Shown here piece by piece: positions 4,855-62,900 of a stretch of DNA of 64,000 nucleotides. Below the pieces are notes generated by a model that was not told the DNA's origin, did no database searches, and worked only from the letters and a program-made list of their open reading frames with translations. Both the position numbers and the translations under genes were made by a program. Position 1 is the first letter of the stretch; each line of letters opens with the position of its first letter. Location: the NCBI GenBank assembly GCA_964647625.1, contig CAZYHZ010000009.1, forward strand, positions 16,056 to 80,055. The letters are read 5' to 3'. The stretch is from an uncultured Acidobacteriota bacterium. Lineage in GTDB: Bacteria > Acidobacteriota > Polarisedimenticolia > Polarisedimenticolales > DASRJG01.

Positions 4855-5775
4855 GTGGCCGCCGCGCCGAAGCGAGTCCTGGTCTGTGACGCGATCGCAG
4901 CCGACGCGATCGAGCGCATGCGTGCCGGAGGGCTCGTGGTCGAAGAGCGCACGGGCCTGTCCGACGAGGCGCTCGAGGCGGCGATCGGCGAGTTCGAGGC
5001 CGTCGTCGTCCGGTCCGCGACCAAGATCAAAGCCCGGCACATCGCCGCCGGAAAGCACCTGAGGGTGATCGTCCGCGGCGGGGTCGGCGTCGACAACATC
5101 GACGTGGCCGCCGCGGAAGCCGAAGGCGTCCGCGTCATGAACACGCCCGGCGCGTCGTCGACCTCCGTCGCCGAGCTCGCGCTCGCGCTGATGTTCGCCC
5201 TGGCGCGGCAGGTGCCCGCGGCCTCGGCGTCGATGAAATCGGGCGCGTGGGACAAGAAGAGCTTCGCGAAAGGGATGGAGCTCGAAGGCAAGACGCTCGG
5301 CGTCCTGGGCGTCGGGCGGATCGGCCGCGCGCTCGCACGGAAGGCGGCAGCACTCGGCATGGTGGTCATCGGCGCCGACCCTGCGCTCGGCGAGACCGGG
5401 TCGATCGACGGGCTCACGCTCCTCCATCCCGACGACGTCTTCCGGCGGGCGGACATCGTCTCGCTCCACATCCCGAAGCCGCCGGGCACGCGCGCGGCGA
5501 TCGGCCCCGACGAGCTGGCCAAGATGAAGGACGGCGTGTTCCTCGTGAACTGCGCACGGGGCGGCGTCGTCGACGAAGCGGCGCTGCTCGCGGCGCTCGT
5601 ATCCGGCAAAGTCGCGGGCGCCGCGCTCGACGTCTTCGAGGTCGAGCCGCCCAAGGACCTGGCCCTGGTGAGCCATCCCCGGGTGATCGCGACGCCGCAC
5701 GTCGGCGCGTCGACCGTCGAGGCGCAGGCGCGCGTCGGGCTCGAGGTCGCCGAGATCCTGCTGGCGGAGTTGTAG
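4855..5775 (+). CDS. serA: D-3-phosphoglycerate dehydrogenase-like 2-hydroxyacid dehydrogenase, short form without ACT domain
   Basis: RGGVGVDNID, GVGRIG, NCARGGVVDE, DVFEVEPP and TPHVGAST motifs; GTG start. Confidence 0.75.
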   Translation: MAAAPKRVLVCDAIAADAIERMRAGGLVVEERTGLSDEALEAAIGEFEAVVVRSATKIKARHIAAGKHLRVIVRGGVGVDNIDVAAAEAEGVRVMNTPGASSTSVAELALALMFALARQVPAASASMKSGAWDKKSFAKGMELEGKTLGVLGVGRIGRALARKAAALGMVVIGADPALGETGSIDGLTLLHPDDVFRRADIVSLHIPKPPGTRAAIGPDELAKMKDGVFLVNCARGGVVDEAALLAALVSGKVAGAALDVFEVEPPKDLALVSHPRVIATPHVGASTVEAQARVGLEVAEILLAEL

Positions 5776-5778
5776 GCG

Positions 5779-6903
5779 ATGAAGTCCCCCAAGGCCGAGA
5801 AGGAGCGCCTCGACAAAGTCACGGTCGGCGCGATCACCGGCCTGGCGCGGGGGCTCGAGACGAAGATCGAGAAGCACGGCAAGCCCGAGGTGTCGTTTCC
5901 CGTGCGCTCTCTGGGTAACGTCCGTTACGACCCCAAGAAAGGGTTCTTCGAGATCGGGAAGGGGAAATCCGTCCGGGCGCTGACGGTCAACACGGCGAAG
6001 ACGTTCGCGCAGACCCTCAAGATGATGGCGCTCTCGAAGGAGCTGGTCGAAACGAGCGACTTCGCCACGAAGCGAGACGCGTACTACCAATCCAAGAACT
6101 GGGGCGAGGCGATGTTCGACGAGCAGGGCGAGTCGGACATGGTCATGGACGACATCGAGGCGATGTTCTCCGTCGAGGGCGTCAGCCGCGAGCAGCTCCG
6201 CTACATCCCCGACGAGCACGGCGGCGCGGTCGCGGGGGAGCTGATCGTCAACGACAGCGACCTCGAGACGGGAAAGGTCGAGCGGATCGACTGTACTAAG
6301 TTCGGATCGGGCGCCTACTCGATCCCGTCGCTCGTCGAGCACCTGACGTTCGAAACGAGCGCGAAGTTCATCCTGTGCATCGAAACCGGCGGGATGTTCC
6401 AGCGGCTCCAGAGCCACAAGTTCTGGCAAAAGGCGCACTGCATCCTGGTCTCGATGGCCGGCGTGCCCACGCGCGCGACCCGCCGGTTCGTGCGCCGCCT
6501 GTCGGACCAGTGCAAGCTCCCGGTGTACGCGTTCGTCGATTGCGATCCCTACGGCATCTCGAACATCTATCGCACGCTGAAGGTGGGCTCGGGCAACGCG
6601 GCGCACATCAATCGCTTCTTCTGCGTGCCGCAGGCGTCGTTTCTCGGAGTGACGCCGAAGGACATCATCGACTACAAGCTCCCGACGCACCCCCTGAAAG
6701 ACGTCGACGTCAAGCGCGCGAAGGATGCCTTGAAGAACGATCCGTTCTTCAAGATCCACAAGCCGTGGGCTTCCGCGATGGAGCAGCTGATCAAGATGGG
6801 CGTCCGCGCCGAGCAGCAGGCCCTTGCGCGCTGGGGCCTGAACTACGTGATCGACGAGTACCTGCCCCGCAAGCTCAAGGCGACCGCGTCGTTCCTGCCG
6901 TAG
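5779..6903 (+). CDS. top6A: DNA topoisomerase VI subunit A (Spo11 family)
   Basis: TKRDAYY (catalytic Tyr region), Toprim CIETGGMF and FVDCDPYG, and C-terminal AEQQAL. Confidence 0.9.
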   Translation: MKSPKAEKERLDKVTVGAITGLARGLETKIEKHGKPEVSFPVRSLGNVRYDPKKGFFEIGKGKSVRALTVNTAKTFAQTLKMMALSKELVETSDFATKRDAYYQSKNWGEAMFDEQGESDMVMDDIEAMFSVEGVSREQLRYIPDEHGGAVAGELIVNDSDLETGKVERIDCTKFGSGAYSIPSLVEHLTFETSAKFILCIETGGMFQRLQSHKFWQKAHCILVSMAGVPTRATRRFVRRLSDQCKLPVYAFVDCDPYGISNIYRTLKVGSGNAAHINRFFCVPQASFLGVTPKDIIDYKLPTHPLKDVDVKRAKDALKNDPFFKIHKPWASAMEQLIKMGVRAEQQALARWGLNYVIDEYLPRKLKATASFLP

Positions 6904-6906
6904 CGA

Positions 6907-6939
6907 AAAAGGGGACAGTCCCCTTTTTCTTACAAATTC
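6907..6939 (+). repeat. Left arm of REP-like inverted repeat (palindromic hairpin plus AT-rich tail)
   Basis: AAAAGGGGACAGTCCCCTTTTTCTTACAAATTC; its reverse complement is at 7520-7551 with one indel. Confidence 0.9.
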
Positions 6940-6972
6940 GGGGCAACGTGCTGGCTTCGCTGGGATTCTGAG

Positions 6973-7464
6973 ATGGGATCAGTACTCACTCGGTGTTGTC
7001 ATCGATCCGATCGACGCCTTCCAAAAGTCTTGTCGGTCTTTTGTTTGATCGGAGTGACCGCTTGCCGCAACGGGGACGCTCGTGACCGATGTAGCGAAAT
7101 CGCTCAGGCGTTGTACGAAGCGAGAATGTCTGGAGATCGACAGCGGATCGAGGTGGCGGTGAATTCGGAGTTCGTGAGAGTTCAACAAGGTAGCGAGTTG
7201 GTCTCCGCTATCGTCGCCAGAGACGCGGAGCTCGGTCAACCTGAATCGCGGCGGCGATATGTGAGCGAAACAAGCTTAGAGAGCGATATTCCCGACAACT
7301 GGTACAAAGTCCGCACTGGTTACAGTCTTCACTACAGTAACGGGGATACATGGGAGGAGGTCCTCTGCCGCGTCGACGGCTCAGGCAAGCGCGGAGCATT
7401 CTTGGGGCTGGAGTTCGGTCCCGATCCTCTTGCCAGACAAGAACAACCCCGGCTCAAGCCATGA
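6973..7464 (+). CDS. Low-GC hypothetical protein, possible lipoprotein, cargo between inverted repeats
   Basis: 163 aa ORF filling the repeat-bounded interval. Lipobox-like LIGVTAC. One line counted (7021-7080) has 33/60 G+C, visibly below the flanks. Confidence 0.55.
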   Translation: MGSVLTRCCHRSDRRLPKVLSVFCLIGVTACRNGDARDRCSEIAQALYEARMSGDRQRIEVAVNSEFVRVQQGSELVSAIVARDAELGQPESRRRYVSETSLESDIPDNWYKVRTGYSLHYSNGDTWEEVLCRVDGSGKRGAFLGLEFGPDPLARQEQPRLKP

Positions 7465-7519
7465 ATTAGGCTACGCGCCTGCGGAGTGGATTCTTCACGC
7501 CGGGGAGCAGGCGGAAATG

Positions 7520-7551
7520 GAATTGTAAGAAAAAGGGGACTGTCCCCTTTT
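7520..7551 (-). repeat. Right arm of REP-like inverted repeat
   Basis: GAATTGTAAGAAAAAGGGGACTGTCCCCTTTT; overlaps the TAA of the convergent gene. Confidence 0.9.
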
Positions 7552-8116
7552 AGCTGACTTCGCCGCCGCCGGGCACGATCAATGAGGGGTCGATGCCGAG
7601 CGCGTTCAAGGAAGCCAGCCAGAGAGCGTTGGGCGGCGTGCCGAGGACCAACTCCGGGTCGACGGGGGCGAGGATCCACGAGCCTTCGTTGATCTCTCGC
7701 TCGAGCTGCCCGGGCGCCCAACCCGCGTACCCAGAGAAGCAGTGGAACCGGATGGTCGCGTCCTGGCAAAGGTGCTGGAGCGTCTTCGTGGACGCGCTCA
7801 CCTGGAGCCCGGTGAGAACGGTCCGGCCCTCGGGGTCGTCGATCTCGCCGTCATAGAGGACCAGTCCCTGCTCCGGCTGCACCGGCCCGCCCACGCGGAC
7901 GCGCTTGGCCGGATCGCCGGCGTAGGTGATCTCGTGATCCTTGCACAGGTCGCGCAGCAGGATCGGCGACTCGCGATTGATCACCAGCCCGAGCGCGCCG
8001 TCGTCGTTCTGCTGGAGAAGCAGGACGACCGACTGCGCGAAGTTCGGGTCGGTGAGCTGAGGCACCGCGATCAGGAAGCCGGGCGCCAGCGTTTTTCCGT
8101 CGTCGCCATCGCTCAT
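7550..8116 (-). CDS. YqgE/AlgH (UPF0301) family protein
   Basis: FLIAVPQLTDPNFAQSVV, GALGLVINR, GGPV and GYAGWAPGQLEREI motifs. Confidence 0.9.
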   Translation of the reverse strand: MSDGDDGKTLAPGFLIAVPQLTDPNFAQSVVLLLQQNDDGALGLVINRESPILLRDLCKDHEITYAGDPAKRVRVGGPVQPEQGLVLYDGEIDDPEGRTVLTGLQVSASTKTLQHLCQDATIRFHCFSGYAGWAPGQLEREINEGSWILAPVDPELVLGTPPNALWLASLNALGIDPSLIVPGGGEVS

Positions 8117-15580: not shown

Positions 15581-15652
15581 GACTCTTGACTCTTAACTCT
15601 AGACTCTCGACGCTTCCATGGGTCGAGAGTCAAGAGTCGAGAGTCGAGCGTC
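15581..15652. repeat. Inverted heptamer array (GACTCTY)n-loop-(RAGAGTC)n
   Basis: GACTCTT GACTCTT AACTCTA GACTCTC GAC ... GTC GAGAGTC AAGAGTC GAGAGTC GAGCGTC, between convergent genes. Confidence 0.85.
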
Positions 15653-28919: not shown

Positions 28920-29044
28920 GACGTCTCCTCCAGGATCCGTTTCCGATACCTTACCAGAGGCGGCCTTTCCCGGCCCAGCGGGGCGGCGCGTGACAATCGG
29001 TGCCCCCGAACCTAAATTCGCCGAGGCTCTCGGGGGAAGGTGTC

Positions 29045-30091
29045 GTGGCGCAGGTCCTGCTGATCGGAGACGACAGGGAACGCACTCGCGGCGTCAAGGA
29101 TCTCCTGGCGCTCGACGGGCATCGGGTCGAGGTGGCGCGGGACCTCGCGCGCTGGCGCGAGAACGAGCGCGCGTTGGCTCCGGACCTCGTGGTGGCCGCC
29201 CTCGCCGAGCCCGCGCAGCTCCTGAACGCGGCCACTCCCGCCTCGCGGGGATTCGCGCCGCCGATCCTGTTCGTGCATTCCGAATCCGACCCCGAAGAGG
29301 CCGCGCATCTCGACGAGCGGCTCATCGACCGTATCGTCAGCCCGTTCGCGGCAGAAGATCTTCTGGCCCGCGTGGACGCTCTGGTTCGGGTTCGCCGCGT
29401 CGTGCTGCACTCGAAGCGTGCCGACACCGCCGAGGACGACGAGGCGCCGGTCCAAGGATTCCGGGGGACGCTGGCGTCTTGGCTTCGCTCGCGGGTCCCG
29501 CGCCTTCAGAAGCCCGTCTCCCCCTATCTCGAGGTCGCCGCGCGCGTCGCGGAATGGTCCGACCGGCGCGATGGGTTCGAGCCGGGACACGCCGAGCGGG
29601 TGACGCAATTTTCCGCGCTGATCGCCGAGCAGCTCGATCTGCCCGACGGGGAGACCGCATCCCTGCTCCGGGCGGCGATGCTCCACGACATCGGCAAGGT
29701 GGCCCTGCCGATCGACGTCCTTCGCCAGAAGTCGCCGCTCGCCGACAACCAGATGCGGCTCGTCCGCACCCACGCTGAGCGCGGGGCCGCGATCGTTCGT
29801 GCGCTCGATCGCGACGACGACGCGGCCGAGACGATCCTCCTCCACCACGAGCACGTCGATGGGTCCGGCTACCACGGCCGGAAGGGGAACGAGATCTCGA
29901 GGCCGGCGCGCGTGCTGGCGGTCGCCGAAGGCTACGACGCGATGACGACCTCGCTCGTACGCAATCGAATGACGCCGGACGCCGCACGGGAGACGATGCG
30001 CAACTTGCGCGGAACGCAGTGGGACGGCGATTGCGTCAACGCGCTGATCCACGCGATGAAGCCGAAGCGCACCACCATCGCGTTGGCGTAG
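29045..30091 (+). CDS. Pseudo-receiver plus HD-GYP-like protein
   Basis: Receiver-like N-terminus; GHAERV, LHDIGK and HHEHVDGSGY motifs. GTG start after GGGGAAGG is inferred. Confidence 0.8.
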   Translation: MAQVLLIGDDRERTRGVKDLLALDGHRVEVARDLARWRENERALAPDLVVAALAEPAQLLNAATPASRGFAPPILFVHSESDPEEAAHLDERLIDRIVSPFAAEDLLARVDALVRVRRVVLHSKRADTAEDDEAPVQGFRGTLASWLRSRVPRLQKPVSPYLEVAARVAEWSDRRDGFEPGHAERVTQFSALIAEQLDLPDGETASLLRAAMLHDIGKVALPIDVLRQKSPLADNQMRLVRTHAERGAAIVRALDRDDDAAETILLHHEHVDGSGYHGRKGNEISRPARVLAVAEGYDAMTTSLVRNRMTPDAARETMRNLRGTQWDGDCVNALIHAMKPKRTTIALA

Positions 30092-30306
30092 GGGACAGTC
30101 CCCTTTTACTTACAAATTCAATTCACCTAGAGATGAGTGTCACTCACGGCACGCTCCGCGTTGCGCGGCGTGAATCGCCGCGCCGCGGTCGCTCCGCCGT
30201 CCGAGCGGCCTCTTGGGGATGAACCGGCCGCTCTCCCAGAGGGCCGCTCCGCGACACTCATCTCTCGGTCGAATTGAATTTGTAAGAAAAAGGGGACTGT
30301 CCCCTA
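30089..30306. mobile_element. REPIN/MITE-like element with about 53 bp terminal inverted repeats
   Basis: 30089-30141 matches the reverse complement of 30253-30306 except for a few bases; TA at both outer ends; 111 bp spacer with an internal hairpin. Confidence 0.7.
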
Positions 30307-30314
30307 TGTGGCAC

Positions 30315-30337
30315 TCGACTCTCAACTCTCGACTGTC
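30315..30337. repeat. Short GACTCTC heptamer run
   Basis: CTC GACTCTC AACTCTC GACTGT, overlapping the TerC stop codon. Confidence 0.6.
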
Positions 30338-31260
30338 TTCTCCGGAATCGCGAGCGACGCGACGATCGAGGCGGCGAGGGTGCCGGCCACGAGCAGCAGC
30401 GTGAGCTCGGTCGAGATGTGGATGAACCGCTCGAACAGCATGCGCGCGCCGATGAACACGAGGATCAGCGACAGCCCGAGATTCAGGAATCGGAACTTCG
30501 GCAGGATCGCGGCGAGCAGGAAGTAGAGCACGCGCATGCCGAGAATGGCGAATGCGTTCGAGGTGTAGAGGATCCACGGGTCGCGCGTGATCCCCAGGAT
30601 CGCCGGCAGCGAGTCGAGCGCGAACACGAAGTCGGTCGTCGCGACGACGATGAACACGATGAGCATCGTCGTCCCGTGCCAGCGTCCGCCGATCTGGACG
30701 AACATGCGATCCGTATCGGCGCCGGCGTCGATCGGGATGACCTTTCCCACGAGCCTCACGACCGGATTCCGGTTCGGGTCGGGCGCTTCCTGCTTGTGCT
30801 TCACGACCAGCATCACGCCGGTGTAGACGAGGAACGCCCCGAAGAACAGGAGCAGGAAGTGGAAGCGCGTCACGAGGGCCGCGCCCGCGAGGATGAACAC
30901 GGCGCGCATCAGGAGCGCGCCGAGGATCCCCCAGAACAAGACGCGCGCCTGGCTCGCTTCCGAGATCGCGAAGTACTTGAAGACCAGGACGAAGACGAAG
31001 ATGTTGTCGATGGACAGGGCCCGCTCGACGACGTAGCCGGTCAGGTATTCCGCGGCGGGCTGGCGTCCGAAGGCCACGTGGACGACGCCGGTGAAGGCGA
31101 CCCCGAGCAGGATCCACGCGACGTTCCAGATCACCGCTTCCTTGATGCCGACCCTGTGCTTGCGTCCCGACACGACGCCGAAATCGACGGCCAGGCAGAC
31201 GGCGAGGAAGACGTTGAACGCGAGCCAAGGAGTGAGGCCGTGGGTGCCGAAGATCTCCAC
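30322..31260 (-). CDS. TerC/Alx family membrane protein
   Basis: YLTGYVVERALSIDNIFVF, LFWGILGAL and TDFVFALDS.PAILG motifs. Confidence 0.92.
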   Translation of the reverse strand: MEIFGTHGLTPWLAFNVFLAVCLAVDFGVVSGRKHRVGIKEAVIWNVAWILLGVAFTGVVHVAFGRQPAAEYLTGYVVERALSIDNIFVFVLVFKYFAISEASQARVLFWGILGALLMRAVFILAGAALVTRFHFLLLFFGAFLVYTGVMLVVKHKQEAPDPNRNPVVRLVGKVIPIDAGADTDRMFVQIGGRWHGTTMLIVFIVVATTDFVFALDSLPAILGITRDPWILYTSNAFAILGMRVLYFLLAAILPKFRFLNLGLSLILVFIGARMLFERFIHISTELTLLLVAGTLAASIVASLAIPEKTVES

Positions 31261-59816: not shown

Positions 59817-59903
59817 TAGGGGACAGGCCCCCAGAGCGTCGAGGGTCGAGAGTCGAGAGTCCGGAACCCCTCTCGACTCTTAACTCTCGACTCTCGACTC
59901 TTG
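59817..59903. repeat. Composite repeat: REP-like palindrome plus inverted heptamer array
   Basis: TAGGGGACAGGCCCC, then GAGCGTC GAGGGTC GAGAGTC GAGAGTC, a loop, then GACTCTT AACTCTC GACTCTC GACTCTT. Confidence 0.8.
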
Positions 59904-59907
59904 CCTC

Positions 59908-62900
59908 TTACGGAAGCGTGATCGTCGTCACCGCCTCGCCGCCTTCGGTGAGGCTGACCGATTGGGACGCATGCCGGGCCTGTGACGTCGCCGTCAGCTC
60001 GTAGCCGCCGGGCGCGAGAGCCGAAACGGTCGTCACGCCGTCGCGCCCCGTGGCGGGCGTGCGTCCACCGAACCGCATGAAATCGGCGCCGAGAAAACCG
60101 GGGACGGCGCGGCACGACACCGACGCACCCTCCACCGCGTTGCCGTGGGAGTCGATGACGCTCACCCGCACGCGGCCCGGCCGCGGAGCGCGCACCGGGA
60201 CGTCGCTGACGTCTTCGGGCTGAACGGAGACCGCTCGGGCGGGGGGATACCCGTCAGCGATCGCGGTGATGTCGATCGGCCCTTCCGCGGGGGCTGTGAT
60301 GACGAACGCGCCGTTGACGTCGGACATGGCTCGCAGGTCGTCGCCGGCCGTCGAGGTCCCGCTCGGAGCGGTCAGGACCATGGCGCTCGCGATGCCGTTG
60401 CCGCCGGCATCGAGCACGTGTCCGCGCACGGTCCGGCCCGGCTCGAGATTGATGTCGACCGTCTGGACGTCGCTGTCGTTCGCGATCGTCACCGGCGGAA
60501 CCGTGGGGATCCGGTAGCCGCTGGCCGTCACGGAGATCGAGTACGTCCCCGCGGTCAGGCCATCGAGCGAAAACGAGCCGTCGGGCTCGGACTGGCCGAG
60601 CAATCCGCCGCCGCCGTGACCGCCGTTCGCGGAGTTGGCCCCGCTCGGCGTGGCGCTGATCATCGCGCCCGAAACGGGCTTACCGTCTTGGTTGACGACC
60701 TTGCCGTTGATCCCCGCCGACCGCAGCGTGACGTCCACGACCGGGTTCGGTTGATCGGGAACCTGCACCGCGACGCCCGCCTGCCGTCCCATGAACATGC
60801 CCCCGGTCGACACGACGACCCGGTAGGCGCCCGCCGTGTCGAGCCCGATCTGGTAATGGCCGTCGGCGTCGCTGCGCGATTGCTTGAGATCCACGGACGC
60901 GCTCTCGCCGTCGCCGGTGAACAGCAGCATGGCGTTCGGGACCGGCTGTCCGCCTTTGAGCACGCGACCGGTGACGGTGATCTTCGAGGCCTCGTCGATG
61001 TCGTAGTTGGTCGTCTCGCCTTCCTGGACCGTGACCTGCTTCATGCCGCCGAACAGCATGACCGCGCCGCCCTGGGGAGCCTTGATCACGATGTAGTCGC
61101 CGGGGGTGATCTTCTCGAAGGTGTACCGCCCGTCCGGGCCCGTGGTCGCCGTTTGGGGGCCGCCGCCTCCGCCCATCTTGGTGAGCAGCACTCCGGCATT
61201 CGGCAACGGAACTTTCTGCGCGTCGCGCACGAGCCCCGTGATCGTTCCCCCGCGCGACAGCTTGATGACGAAGTCGTCCGTGTCCGCATCGGCGCTGATG
61301 TCGACGCGTCCCGAATTCGGCGAGTACTCCGGCTGCGAGGCATCGATCGCGTACGTGCGCGCCTCGAGCCCCGCGATCTCGAAGTGACCGTCGAGGGTCG
61401 AGATCGCGGCGCCCTGAGACTGATCGGCGCCGCCCATCCGCATCGTGAAGCCCTGCGGCTGGGAAACCACGATCGTCGCGCCGGCGATGGGCGCGTCGTC
61501 CTTCGAGGCGACCACGCGGCCGCGCAGGGCGCGCCCGTCCTCGACCGTCAGCGTGCCGACGTCGGTGACCTGCTCGGAGACGACTTTCAGTCCGGTCTTC
61601 CGGGCCGGCGCCTTGCCGTCGACCTTCGCGGTGATCGTGACGGTTCCCGGATTGACGTTGTCGAGCCGGAAGTTACCCGACGGATCGGTGAACACCTGGT
61701 CGTCGTCGGGACGGCTGCTGATCATGACGCGGAATCCGGGGCGCTCCTGATTCTCCTTCGCCTCCGGAAACGCCTGCACGCGAAACGCCGGGGGAGCGGC
61801 CGCCCCGCGCAGCAGGACTTTGCCGACGATGCTCCCCGTCTTTTCGAGGGAGAAATCGACGTCCGTGTCGCCGGGGGTGGCGCCTTCACGGCTGGCTTCG
61901 GCGAACCCGGTCGCGCGGACCGAAAGGTTCCGGACCGGAGAATCGCCGAGGCCCGAGATTCGATAGCGGCCGTCGGCACCGGAGCGCGCTTCGCGCGAGA
62001 GGCGGAAGTCGGCATCCATCGACATTCCGAAGATCGTCGCGCCTTCGACCGGCTGGCCGGTGGCGTCGGTGATGCGGCCGGAGACGCTCTTCGATTCCTT
62101 GACGCGCAGCGTTCCGAGGTCGACCGTCTCGCCGCTCTTGAGCCTCAGCCCTTCCTTGGTGACGTCGGAGAAATCGGCCGGCTGGAGCGTGAGATCGAAC
62201 GTGCCGGAATCCAGCCCCTTCACGAGGAACTTGCCGTCGCCCTGCGCGACGATCTTGTCGCGATCGACGTCGCCGGCGCCGATCGCGAAACCGCGCCGCC
62301 GTCCGCCGGTCGCGCCGCCCTGCGTTTGGAGCCTCACGTCGACGTCCTTTACCGGAACGTCCTTCGCGGTGACGAGCCGGAAGGTCAAGGACGCCGCCGC
62401 ATCGAGCTTCATCTCGAGGTCGCCGCGCTCGGTGCCGGCTTCGATCGGGATCGGGCCTTCTTCGTGGGAGCCGAAGCCCTCCTTCGTCGCGCGGACCGTG
62501 TACTTGTTCCCCGCGAGGACGCCGTCGAACGTGAACTTGCCGTCGGCGTCGGAGCGCTTGGCCTCCCGGCTGTCCTTCAGGAGCTTGAGCAGGCTGCCGT
62601 CGGAGCCCGACGCCGTGACGATCGCGTCGGCCACGGCCTTGCCGTCCGGCCCGACGACTCGTCCGGCGATGCGCCCCCCGGGCTGAAGGTAGAGGGTGTT
62701 CGCCTCGGGCTTGCGCTCTTCGCCGGGGGCGAGCGGCGCGGCGACGACGCGGTCGAGCGTCGCTCGCGCCTTGGCCGGTGCGATCGCATCGACGATGACG
62801 ACGCCTTGGGCGCAATCCTTGATCAGGAACGTGCCGTCCTCGCCGCTCTGGACCGTGTGCGCGGCGTCTTTCCCGAAGCGAGCGGCATCTCGCTCGATCG

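Follow-up and report, generated by a model that had tools for sequence, protein, structure and literature searches.

The small lipoprotein gene at 6.9 kb of the window, that is, of the whole 64-kb stretch of DNA analysed here, lies between two inverted repeat arms, and the evidence supports these arms being members of a dispersed, non-autonomous, REPIN/MITE-like repeat family. The arms most likely act as intrinsic terminators of the genes that run into them. No published description of the arms was found in the literature, and the family, which belongs to Acidobacteriota of the Polarisedimenticolia type, appears to be undescribed so far. As to how the gene came to lie between its two arms, the explanation favoured here, held with somewhat better than even confidence, is that foreign DNA was inserted in situ, either into a resident doublet of the family or between the terminator arms of two convergent genes. 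The gene-bearing copy is, as far as can be judged, a single and probably accidental case.

The family represents a clear REP/REPIN-like system in a phylum in which such elements are poorly studied, and it has three unusual traits, namely embedded stop codons, nesting and a junction content which turns over faster than the flanking genes. The window gives an example of a doublet that has come to enclose a newly acquired gene, whose transcript the right arm would be in a good position to terminate.

The repeat pair at 6.9 kb and the gene it encloses

The perfectly matching stretches of the left arm (6907-6935) and the right arm (7523-7551) are 29 nt long, 100% complementary and separated by 587 nt. 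With one 1-nt indel allowed, the arms lengthen to ~33-35 nt, GAAAAAGGGGACAGTCCCCTTTTTCTTACAAATTC (6905-6939) and GAATTGTAAGAAAAAGGGGACTGTCCCCTTTT (7520-7551), in agreement with the preliminary description, which had given them as near-perfect inverted arms of 32-33 bp with an outer hairpin and an inward tail. Each arm has a palindrome of its own, AAAAGGGGAC-W-GTCCCCTTTT (GGGGAC-W-GTCCCC), and the tails, CTTACAAATTC and GAATTGTAAG, are symmetrically kept. Measured against the family consensus, the left arm is identical at 26/26 positions and the right arm at 25/26, and a 51-nt fold of the left arm has an energy of -20.6 kcal/mol (z = -3.6). The arms and what they enclose had also been said to fill almost the whole gap between two convergent stop codons. 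Indeed, the element occupies all of the gap between the stops of top6A and yqgE, such that the last 2 nt of the right arm overlap the yqgE stop (TTA on the + strand, 7550-7552). The top6A product matches Pfam TOP6A-Spo11_Toprim (7.5e-59), as well as Topo_VI_alpha and TP6A_N. The features of both elements in the window are collected in Table 1.

Table 1. Coordinates in the window of the two family elements, their parts and the genes that flank them
Feature	Position	Strand	Remarks
top6A (DNA topoisomerase VI subunit A)	5779..6903	+	left flanking gene, transcribed toward left arm; TAG stop 6901-6903
left arm	6905..6939	+	GAAAAA, hairpin core GGGGACAGTCCCC (6911-6923), TTTTTC, tail TTACAAATTC
leader, left arm to ORF start	6940..6972	+	without similarity to interiors of other family elements
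lipoprotein ORF	6973..7464	+	163 aa
trailer, ORF stop to right arm	7465..7519	+	unrelated to interiors of other family elements
right arm, inverted copy of left arm	7520..7551	-	on + strand: GAATTGTAAG, AAAAA, core GGGGACTGTCCCC (7535-7547), TTTT
yqgE/algH-like gene (DUF179)	7550..8116	-	right flanking gene, transcribed toward right arm; Pfam DUF179 7.4e-38
HD-GYP response-regulator gene	29000-30091		convergent with terC; TAG stop overlaps first G of 30.1-kb hairpin
second family element	30089..30306	.	214 nt hairpin to hairpin, gene-free
terC	30322-31260	-	other flank of 30.1-kb element

With up to 3 mismatches allowed, the 19-mer AAAGGGGACWGTCCCCTTT occurs 4 times in the 64-kb window against 0.01 expected, and 0/100 shuffles gave 4 occurrences; the 4 copies of the core motif in the window are those of the 6.9-kb pair and of a second pair at 30.1 kb, which gives a copy density of 2 elements in the window. 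The second pair had been described as the same arms without a gene inside, and this holds. Its arms (30089-30124 and 30271-30306) are 36 nt long and 97% complementary, and they enclose a non-coding interior of 146 nt in which there is no ORF. Folded as single-stranded DNA, this whole element has an energy of -92 kcal/mol (z = -13.9). It is one of a subfamily of 178-214 nt whose interior module is conserved and oriented, and elements homologous to it are found at other loci (L120, L053, L041 and others).

The 6.9-kb pair is flanked by AAAAA and TTTT, and TA is absent on both sides (AA and TT instead). Both arms carry in this position the rarer AAAA outer flank, A being found at -2 in 28% of family arms. 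Neither a target-site duplication nor direct repeats were found at the ends of the pair; the TAGC on either side of it was rejected as a target-site duplication, since the two stop codons account for it and it is absent in relatives. In local alignments, the interior ends of the element matched each other and the 30.1-kb element no better than shuffles did, and a similarity noted by eye between ACTCACTCGG and CACTCACGG was dropped for this reason. A consensus scan of 6700-7700 found no sigma-70-like promoter.

The 163-aa ORF is the only ORF with homologs between the 6.9-kb arms. Its product has a signal peptide and a lipobox (...GVTA|C31), and homology begins at the lipobox Cys. A look-up of the exact product gave no record. 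A search of 5.8 billion clustered proteins gave one match only, P0001 (54% identity, E 1e-36), and thus no copy or homolog above 54% identity among them, whilst an exhaustive search of 1.84 billion proteins gave 13 representative homologs. All homologs are of ~150 aa, with a signal peptide, an ...ACH lipobox, conserved C40/C132 and the motifs LYEAR and SRRRY. There was no match to a Pfam or NCBIfam family. The AlphaFold2 model of the product (pLDDT 86.6) places three helices against a four-stranded sheet, and Foldseek searches with this model gave PDB matches which were all weak (none with E <= 0.001, the best at E ~0.01) and mostly to NTF2-like or DUF4783/DUF3887 structures. The mature domain of the lipoprotein is accordingly predicted, from the model, to have an NTF2-like fold.

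In composition, the ORF is at 56% GC in a window of 67% GC, and its GC3 of 0.58, against 0.89-0.93 in the neighbouring genes, indicates that it was acquired recently. The foreign codon usage of the interior reaches right up to the arms. Judged by its homologs and composition, the ORF is a real gene with foreign codon usage, and the earlier characterisation of it as a low-GC, foreign-looking and possibly lipoprotein-encoding ORF is upheld. The closest homologs, at 52-54% identity, are P0001 (locus L017, after a HigA-like HTH gene) and P0122 (L147-L149); no arms or inverted repeats were found around either gene, and the cargo homologs sit in lower-GC contigs without arms. The ORF was also considered, and rejected, as a RAYT or TIRYT, as it has no HUH or catalytic-Tyr motif, no Y1_Tnp match and a different (NTF2-like) predicted fold.

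A dispersed repeat family with terminator-like placement

The unit of the family reads GAAATA-GGGGACAGTCCCC-TTTTTC-TTACAAA, and the position-specific composition of 218 de-duplicated arms is g-R-A-A-T-A, followed by GGGGACAGTCCCC, TTTTTC and TTACAAA-N-Y-C, the arm sequence of the family being GGGGASWSTCCCCTTTTWCTTA. Most copies have 0-1 mismatches to the 26-nt consensus, across many genomes. Scans for the exact pattern gave 16 loci among GTDB representative genomes, mostly Acidobacteriota MAGs, with 10 of the 16 (exact 25-mer) in the single MAG JANMVW01, and at least 120 loci in metagenomes, such that the public total is at least 136. A phage origin was rejected, the arm pattern having no match in viral contigs. 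Searches of Rfam with the 6.9-kb region, the compact doublets and the 30.1-kb element returned only sub-threshold matches to generic long hairpins (miRNA precursors etc.).

From 136 public loci among the matches listed, 83 inward-facing pairs of arms were collected, the window included, and these fall into discrete size classes. There are 45 pairs of 68-70 nt, which represent a compact doublet (69 nt) with a conserved asymmetric centre, GGTATCCGRGGAG, and a fold of -64 kcal/mol (z = -12.5); 16 pairs of 111-148 nt, in which one doublet is nested within another; 11 pairs of 158-186 nt; and 5 of 199-214 nt, the 30.1-kb element of the window amongst them. Single pairs of 246 nt and 306 nt are each built of nested doublets. 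In 76/82 pairs the left arm has A as its central loop base and the right arm T, from which it follows that the arms are true inverted copies. The arms of the two pairs in the window, of 29-36 nt, are 97-100% complementary, and in complementarity and inverted loop bases the family is like REP/REPIN-type doublets. Another ~69 arms have no pair; for at least 20 of these, more than 1 kb of interior sequence is without a partner, and lone arms without a partner within 1-4 kb are common. An apparent pair of 844 nt at L065 was rejected, being a 145-nt doublet and, separately, an element that lies in frame within the ORF of a membrane protein; it has no cargo.

The 178-214-nt elements share a conserved, oriented interior of 110-150 nt at no fewer than nine loci with unrelated flanks, which argues that arms and interior were copied together. 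Moreover, three short-read contigs of the window's own organism stop inside an arm, as expected of a multi-copy repeat. The description of the element as non-autonomous and REPIN/MITE-like is thus sustained, given the number of loci, their differing flanks, the presence or absence of copies among relatives, the contigs that break in an arm and the interiors that are copied along.

The placement of the arms is that of terminators. Amongst the 186 arms with enough outer flank, the coding region runs toward the arm in 122 and away from it in 15, and in 117 of the 122 genes that run toward an arm the stop codon is at most 31 nt before the hairpin. Indeed, 51 of the 122 (42%) stop at the element's own TAG (...aaTAGgggac...), in which the G is already the first of the hairpin. 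Most compact doublets are found between tandem genes, and most long ones between convergent genes. Read from outside, the RNA form of an arm is a GGGGA-CAG-UCCCC stem-loop followed by UUUUUC, that is, a G+C-rich stem-loop with a U-run just downstream of a gene, as in intrinsic terminators. In the window, the left arm has this geometry for top6A and the right arm for yqgE on the minus strand, and the T-runs on both sides of the right arm suggest that it may terminate the lipoprotein transcript (+ strand) as well. A simple terminator consensus scan of 6700-7700 did not flag the arms, presumably a shortcoming of the scan, as the A/T tracts are taken up into the stem.

If placement and orientation were the only features to be explained, the arms could be ordinary bidirectional terminators which evolved independently, with no family and no mobility, their symmetry coming from convergent transcription. 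This is very improbable. More than 200 arms at unrelated loci have kept the tail CTTACAAA, a sequence that plays no part in a terminator hairpin; the elements fall into discrete size classes with conserved interiors; and presence or absence differs among relatives, with assemblies breaking inside an arm.

How the gene came to lie between the arms

Top6A has many homologs at 83-95% identity, which in some sources carry the name Candidatus Polarisedimenticolaceae, and the junction 3' of top6A was read in eight relatives with Top6A identities of 93-95%. The lipoprotein ORF is absent from all of them. In the closest relative, L143 (95%), the left arm lies against the stop codon, and beyond it come another interior and then the end of a different gene on the minus strand. 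At 94% identity, L021 has an 18-nt gap with a lone hairpin, ccgTAGGGGAGTGTCCCCTAcgggtca; L145 has a compact doublet within a split outer hairpin, TCGGGGACAG...CTGTCCCCGA; L018 and L019 have a nested element together with an IS630-family insertion sequence at the TA beside the right hairpin; L020 has the L018-type element with a different insertion inside; and L144 is armless, with a different downstream gene (FG-GAP). At 93% identity, L022 has a 166-nt gap holding a perfectly palindromic nested element within a split outer hairpin, and L146 has a rearranged element which holds the centre motif. The eight relatives thus give seven junction states, L018 and L019 sharing one and the lone hairpin being another, and these varied states indicate that the top6A junction turns over far faster than the genes on either side of it. 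Differences between relatives and a lone palindrome left behind are what insertion and excision of REP/REPIN elements would give, as is the state of the 30.1-kb junction in the relative L153, which is empty, with 4 nt between two stop codons.

The preliminary description had suggested that empty top6A-yqgE junctions be sought in relatives, and had held that its reading would fail if the ORF proved syntenic in relatives without the arms. The ORF is not syntenic in any relative read; the gene is absent from all, and family arms are often resident at the junction. It is this residence that makes insertion of the gene into a resident doublet more parsimonious than delivery of arms and gene together. 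Furthermore, the interior has no family homology, no inner repeat and no target duplication, and the tails are symmetrical, which fits foreign DNA having replaced the apex or spacer of a doublet.

The course of events under insertion in situ would be as follows. Units of the family occur singly, as inverted doublets of 69 nt and as longer doublets that are nested or bear a module. The convergent genes top6A and yqgE would each have had a terminator-like unit after its stop codon, such that the two units faced each other. In the lineage of the window, a foreign segment of ~580 bp with one small lipoprotein gene would then have settled between the tails of the doublet, and both arms would have survived intact, the left one after top6A and the right one after both yqgE and the new gene. 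The segment may have entered after a break at the palindrome's tip, by illegitimate joining, or else by recombination that made use of the arms.

Some features count against insertion in situ. The arms are near-perfect consensus copies with the AAAA flank, as would fit a young element that is perhaps still mobilisable as a unit, and arms of the family carry a conserved interior at nine or more unrelated loci and can therefore take internal sequence along. The exact pre-insertion state at the top6A junction, with the same arms and a short spacer, was not seen in any of the relatives read.

The 645-bp unit could otherwise be a mobilisable cargo cassette, a REPIN or MITE with a gene for a spacer, which was delivered whole by a transposase acting in trans. 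Several features speak for such a cassette: both arms are intact consensus copies and are inverted as they should be; differing interiors (43 nt, nested doublets and the 110-150-nt module) each occur at several unrelated loci, such that the arms appear sufficient to take an interior along; the top6A junction is a preferred landing site of family elements; and the layout of arm, gap, ORF and arm resembles what is understood to be that of REPtrons and TIRtrons around RAYT/TIRYT genes (PMC3733652). Even so, a cassette of this kind is unlikely. The window's 637-nt pair is the only one that holds a gene among the 83 pairs in the matches listed, the other pairs being of 68-306 nt and non-coding, although rare gene-bearing pairs could escape a scan that covers one GTDB genome per species and the metagenome matches listed. 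A second copy of the gene above 54% identity is lacking among the 5.8 billion clustered proteins, the closest cargo homologs are without arms, there is no target-site duplication, and arms are present at the same junction in relatives which do not have the gene. No sign was found that the gene-bearing copy has ever moved.

On these grounds, the earlier proposal of a vehicle that captures and delivers single genes is not borne out, and it is weakened further by the family arms already in place at the top6A|yqgE junction of gene-free relatives. The tabulation of paired spacing and cargo suggested with that proposal gives 83 listed pairs, and none of the 82 besides the window's pair holds a gene. 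Paired arms that never hold variable cargo had been named as an outcome that would tell against the vehicle, and this is largely what is found, with the window's pair as the sole exception among those listed.

Just as unlikely is a reading in which the arms served as portable homology: after horizontal transfer, a donor gene lying between two family repeats would have taken the place of the resident doublet's spacer by a double crossover within the ~33-nt arms, which would amount to neither transposition nor random insertion. The near identity of arms across many genomes would allow this, and foreign codon usage right up to the arms, the symmetrical keeping of both tails and the quick change of junction content among relatives would all be consistent with it. 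However, the donor-type arrangement of a gene between arms is found in none of the 136 listed loci, and the cargo homologs lie in lower-GC contigs which have no arms. A stretch of ~33 nt is, moreover, near the lower length limit for RecA-dependent exchange as generally known, which weighs against a crossover within arms of this size.

The mobilising enzyme and comparison with known systems

The RAYT of E. coli and six TIRYTs from Acidobacteria (PMC3733652) served as tblastn queries against the window and 146 loci (611 kb). No RAYT-like gene was found in the 64-kb window, and the single match is at L110:8033-9124 (E 2e-8), a RAYT/TIRYT-like gene with HYH and YIHLNPV motifs. This gene scores 34 bits with NF047646, below the NCBIfam cut-off of 80, and is not flanked by arms. 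By analogy with known REP systems, the family would spread through an enzyme acting in trans, the best candidate being a HUH tyrosine transposase of RAYT/TIRYT type.

The other enzyme put forward earlier, of IS630 type, is disfavoured. If the arms were the terminal inverted repeats of an IS630/Tc1-mariner-type MITE, moved by an IS630-family transposase with duplication of TA, one might point to the TA directly outside the hairpin in 63% of arms (T at -2), and to the insertion sequence of the IS630 family that L018 and L019 have at the top6A junction. That element, with a 352-aa HTH + DDE_3 transposase, duplicates TA, but its terminal repeats are of another sequence, GTGTTCCGTACCCGAAGTCATGTTAA, with no relation to the arms. 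In the window, the arms are flanked by AA and TT rather than TA, and outer-flank conservation in the family stops only 5-6 nt outside the hairpin. Since the outer GAAATA and the inner TTTTTC are mirror images, the T at -2 belongs to an extended palindrome and not to a target duplication, and the embedded TAG stop gives a better explanation of the TA. An origin of the arms as IS630-type termini is therefore highly improbable, there being neither a TA duplication nor repeats that match a full-length IS630-family element, and IS630 was rejected as the mobiliser. The suggested search for RAYT or IS630 genes flanked by the arms yielded, in the window and the loci covered, an unflanked RAYT-like gene and unrelated IS630 repeats; the RAYT/HUH part of the proposal remains the best candidate by analogy only.

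A more specific form of the cassette idea is that REP/REPIN-type doublets of the family carry a gene as their spacer and are moved whole by a trans-acting tyrosine transposase of RAYT/TIRYT type, to which only a small probability is given. Were it true, REP elements would have a way of moving genes, as a single-gene cargo REPIN, that has not been described for them, and the fast-changing top6A junction would be a favoured landing site, the family's own hairpin being the target of the elements.

A close likeness of the family is to the REP doublets and REPINs with RAYT of Pseudomonas fluorescens SBW25 (PMC3116915, PMC3337134) and to the BIMEs of E. coli, which share with it short imperfect palindromes and inverted doublets that can fold to one hairpin. 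REPINs have discrete spacer classes, A/T flanks that are read as terminator co-option, and long palindromic singlets after excision (PMC3337134). The family described here likewise has discrete classes of spacer length, singlets, flanks of A/T runs and lone long palindromes where a doublet may have been lost; its copies appear to be numerous and extragenic, and they are variably present between close relatives. It differs from REPINs in that the outer tag of the arms is (A)ATAG in place of GTAG, that many arm copies give the upstream gene its TAG stop, that nested doublets and a conserved interior module of 110-150 nt are common, and that no cognate RAYT flanked by arms was found in the window and 146 loci. 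A gene-containing spacer of 587 nt, as in the window copy, is not known to have been described for REPINs.

In a TIRtron or REPtron, the layout is understood to be an arm, a short gap, an ORF of roughly 500 bp and a second arm. The window, with an arm, ~35-55 nt, an ORF of roughly 500 bp and an arm, resembles this (PMC3733652); unlike a TIRtron, it has a lipoprotein gene between its repeats and no HUH/Y1 tyrosine transposase. The TIRYT transposases are RAYT-like and include a well-defined Acidobacteria group; on either side of them lie repeats of TIR families, and a GGGGWSAS motif is common to several of these families (Di Nocera et al. 2013, PMC3733652). The TIR families resemble the present one in belonging to the same phylum and in occurring as singles, dimers and clusters, and the arm starts, GGGGACAG or GGGGACAC, fit GGGGWSAS. 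This comparison is at the level of the motif alone, and given a GGGG start the chance of a match is ~1 in 32, such that the match is a lead and not a test.

Small palindromic repeats which can act as terminators, and some of which lie in frame in genes, are also known as the Correia/NEMIS elements of Neisseria and the Rickettsia palindromic elements. The family is like these in that one copy lies in frame within a gene (L065), and unlike them in its arm sequences, which are unrelated; Correia elements, in contrast to what was seen of the family, also have a TA duplication and a defined IHF site.

Finally, mobile insertion cassettes (MICs), such as the qnrS2 MIC (PMC5444012), have two inverted repeats around a single non-transposase gene of foreign composition, and the window pair has a passenger gene of this kind. 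In MICs, though, the repeats match a known insertion sequence, have target-site duplications and usually recur at several sites, and at the window pair neither these features nor a recurrence of the cassette or its cargo were found. Should gene-bearing doublets of the family turn out to be mobile, REP elements would have to be counted, beside integron cassettes and MICs, among the carriers of single genes.

Interior module and contig ends

At unrelated loci, the 178-214-nt elements of the palindromic repeat family share, on alignment, an oriented and conserved interior module, CTCACGGCACGCTC ... CTCGCTCCGC ... CCCAGAGGGCCG. The module has no counterpart in Rfam; it might act as a small RNA or as a site of protein binding. 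The copies are listed in the table together with the other features described here.

Three short-read contigs (L150-L152, from the Logan assemblies SRR12313477-79) code for a TerC protein identical to that of the window, and all stop at one position within the arm (...GGGGACAGTCCCCTTTTTCTTACA). At these ends the assembly broke in a repeat that is present in many copies. The window also holds a second short repeat type, not related to the arms, which is made of GAGTCGAGAGT/ACTCTCGACTC runs; one of its copies consists of two inverted units with 22 nt between them.

Positions of the features in the window and in the public loci
Feature	Locus	Position	Basis
Interior module	window	30125-30270	alignment
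Interior module	L120, L053, L041, L107, L047, L066, L082, L055		alignment
TAG stop sharing first hairpin base	window	30089-30091	
Second repeat type	window	59835-59908; 30315-30340; 15622-15648	
IS630-family insertion	L018 (also L019)	6279-7413	
Broken junction element	L020	6215-6306	
Junction upstream of top6A	L018	3197-4945	
Junction upstream of top6A	L021	3808-4986	
Junction upstream of top6A	window	5775-5779	
HigA-like antitoxin gene	L017	36-326	
RAYT/TIRYT-like ORF	L110	8033-9124	
Nested elements	L022	6113-6290	
Nested elements	L145	3477-3595	
In-frame element	L065	1640-1726	

Stop codons and insertions around top6A

Where a gene runs into an arm, its stop codon is the TAG of ...aaTAGgggac... 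in 51 of the 122 cases counted across the family (42%), such that the stop shares the first base of the hairpin. Among relatives in which the 3' junction of top6A was read, the TAG stop of this gene in L021 is the start of a single 17-nt palindrome, TAGGGGAGTGTCCCCTA, located in an 18-nt gap ahead of the yqgE stop, and in L018 and L022 the hairpin ends contain both convergent stop codons.

The junction element of L018 (Top6A 94% identical), as also that of L019, carries an IS630-family insertion sequence at the TA directly outside its right hairpin; this TA is duplicated, the terminal repeat is GTGTTCCGTACCCGAAGTCATGTTAA, and the insertion codes for a 352-aa HTH + DDE_3 transposase. A distinct insertion in L020 breaks an element of the L018 type after GCTTTGCAAG.

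The junction upstream of top6A is variable too. In the window, L022, L145 and L146 the 2-hydroxyacid dehydrogenase gene adjoins top6A directly, whereas a gene for a 582-aa TPR protein (L018, L144) or a 392-aa gene (L021) lies between the two in other relatives.

Gene neighbourhoods elsewhere

The lipoprotein gene has its closest homolog on a 1.3-kb contig (L017), where this homolog comes after a HigA-like HTH_3 antitoxin gene; such a position suggests that the neighbourhood of this gene family is accessory or mobile. Another contig (L110) bears family doublets and a RAYT/TIRYT-like ORF, not itself flanked by arms, with the motifs HYH and YIHLNPV and a long C-terminal extension; this ORF has no Pfam match and scores 34 bits with NF047646, against a cut-off of 80.

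Nested and in-frame copies

In two relatives (L022, L145) a complete inner element, each end of which bears the same hairpin as the outer one, splits the outer GGGGAC...GTCCCC hairpin exactly at its centre, and the sequences flanking that inner element mirror each other (GCGGAATA/TATTCCGC; AGCAAAGAATA/TATTCTTTGCT). This nested symmetry could have arisen by insertion into the hairpin loop, or by one arm being copied over the other. Within a 519-aa membrane-protein ORF (L065), a family element lies in frame and is translated as ...RKKGTLPFFLQSRGQAPDTMPVPVSRKRGLSLP..., an arrangement reminiscent of those Rickettsia palindromic elements that sit inside genes.
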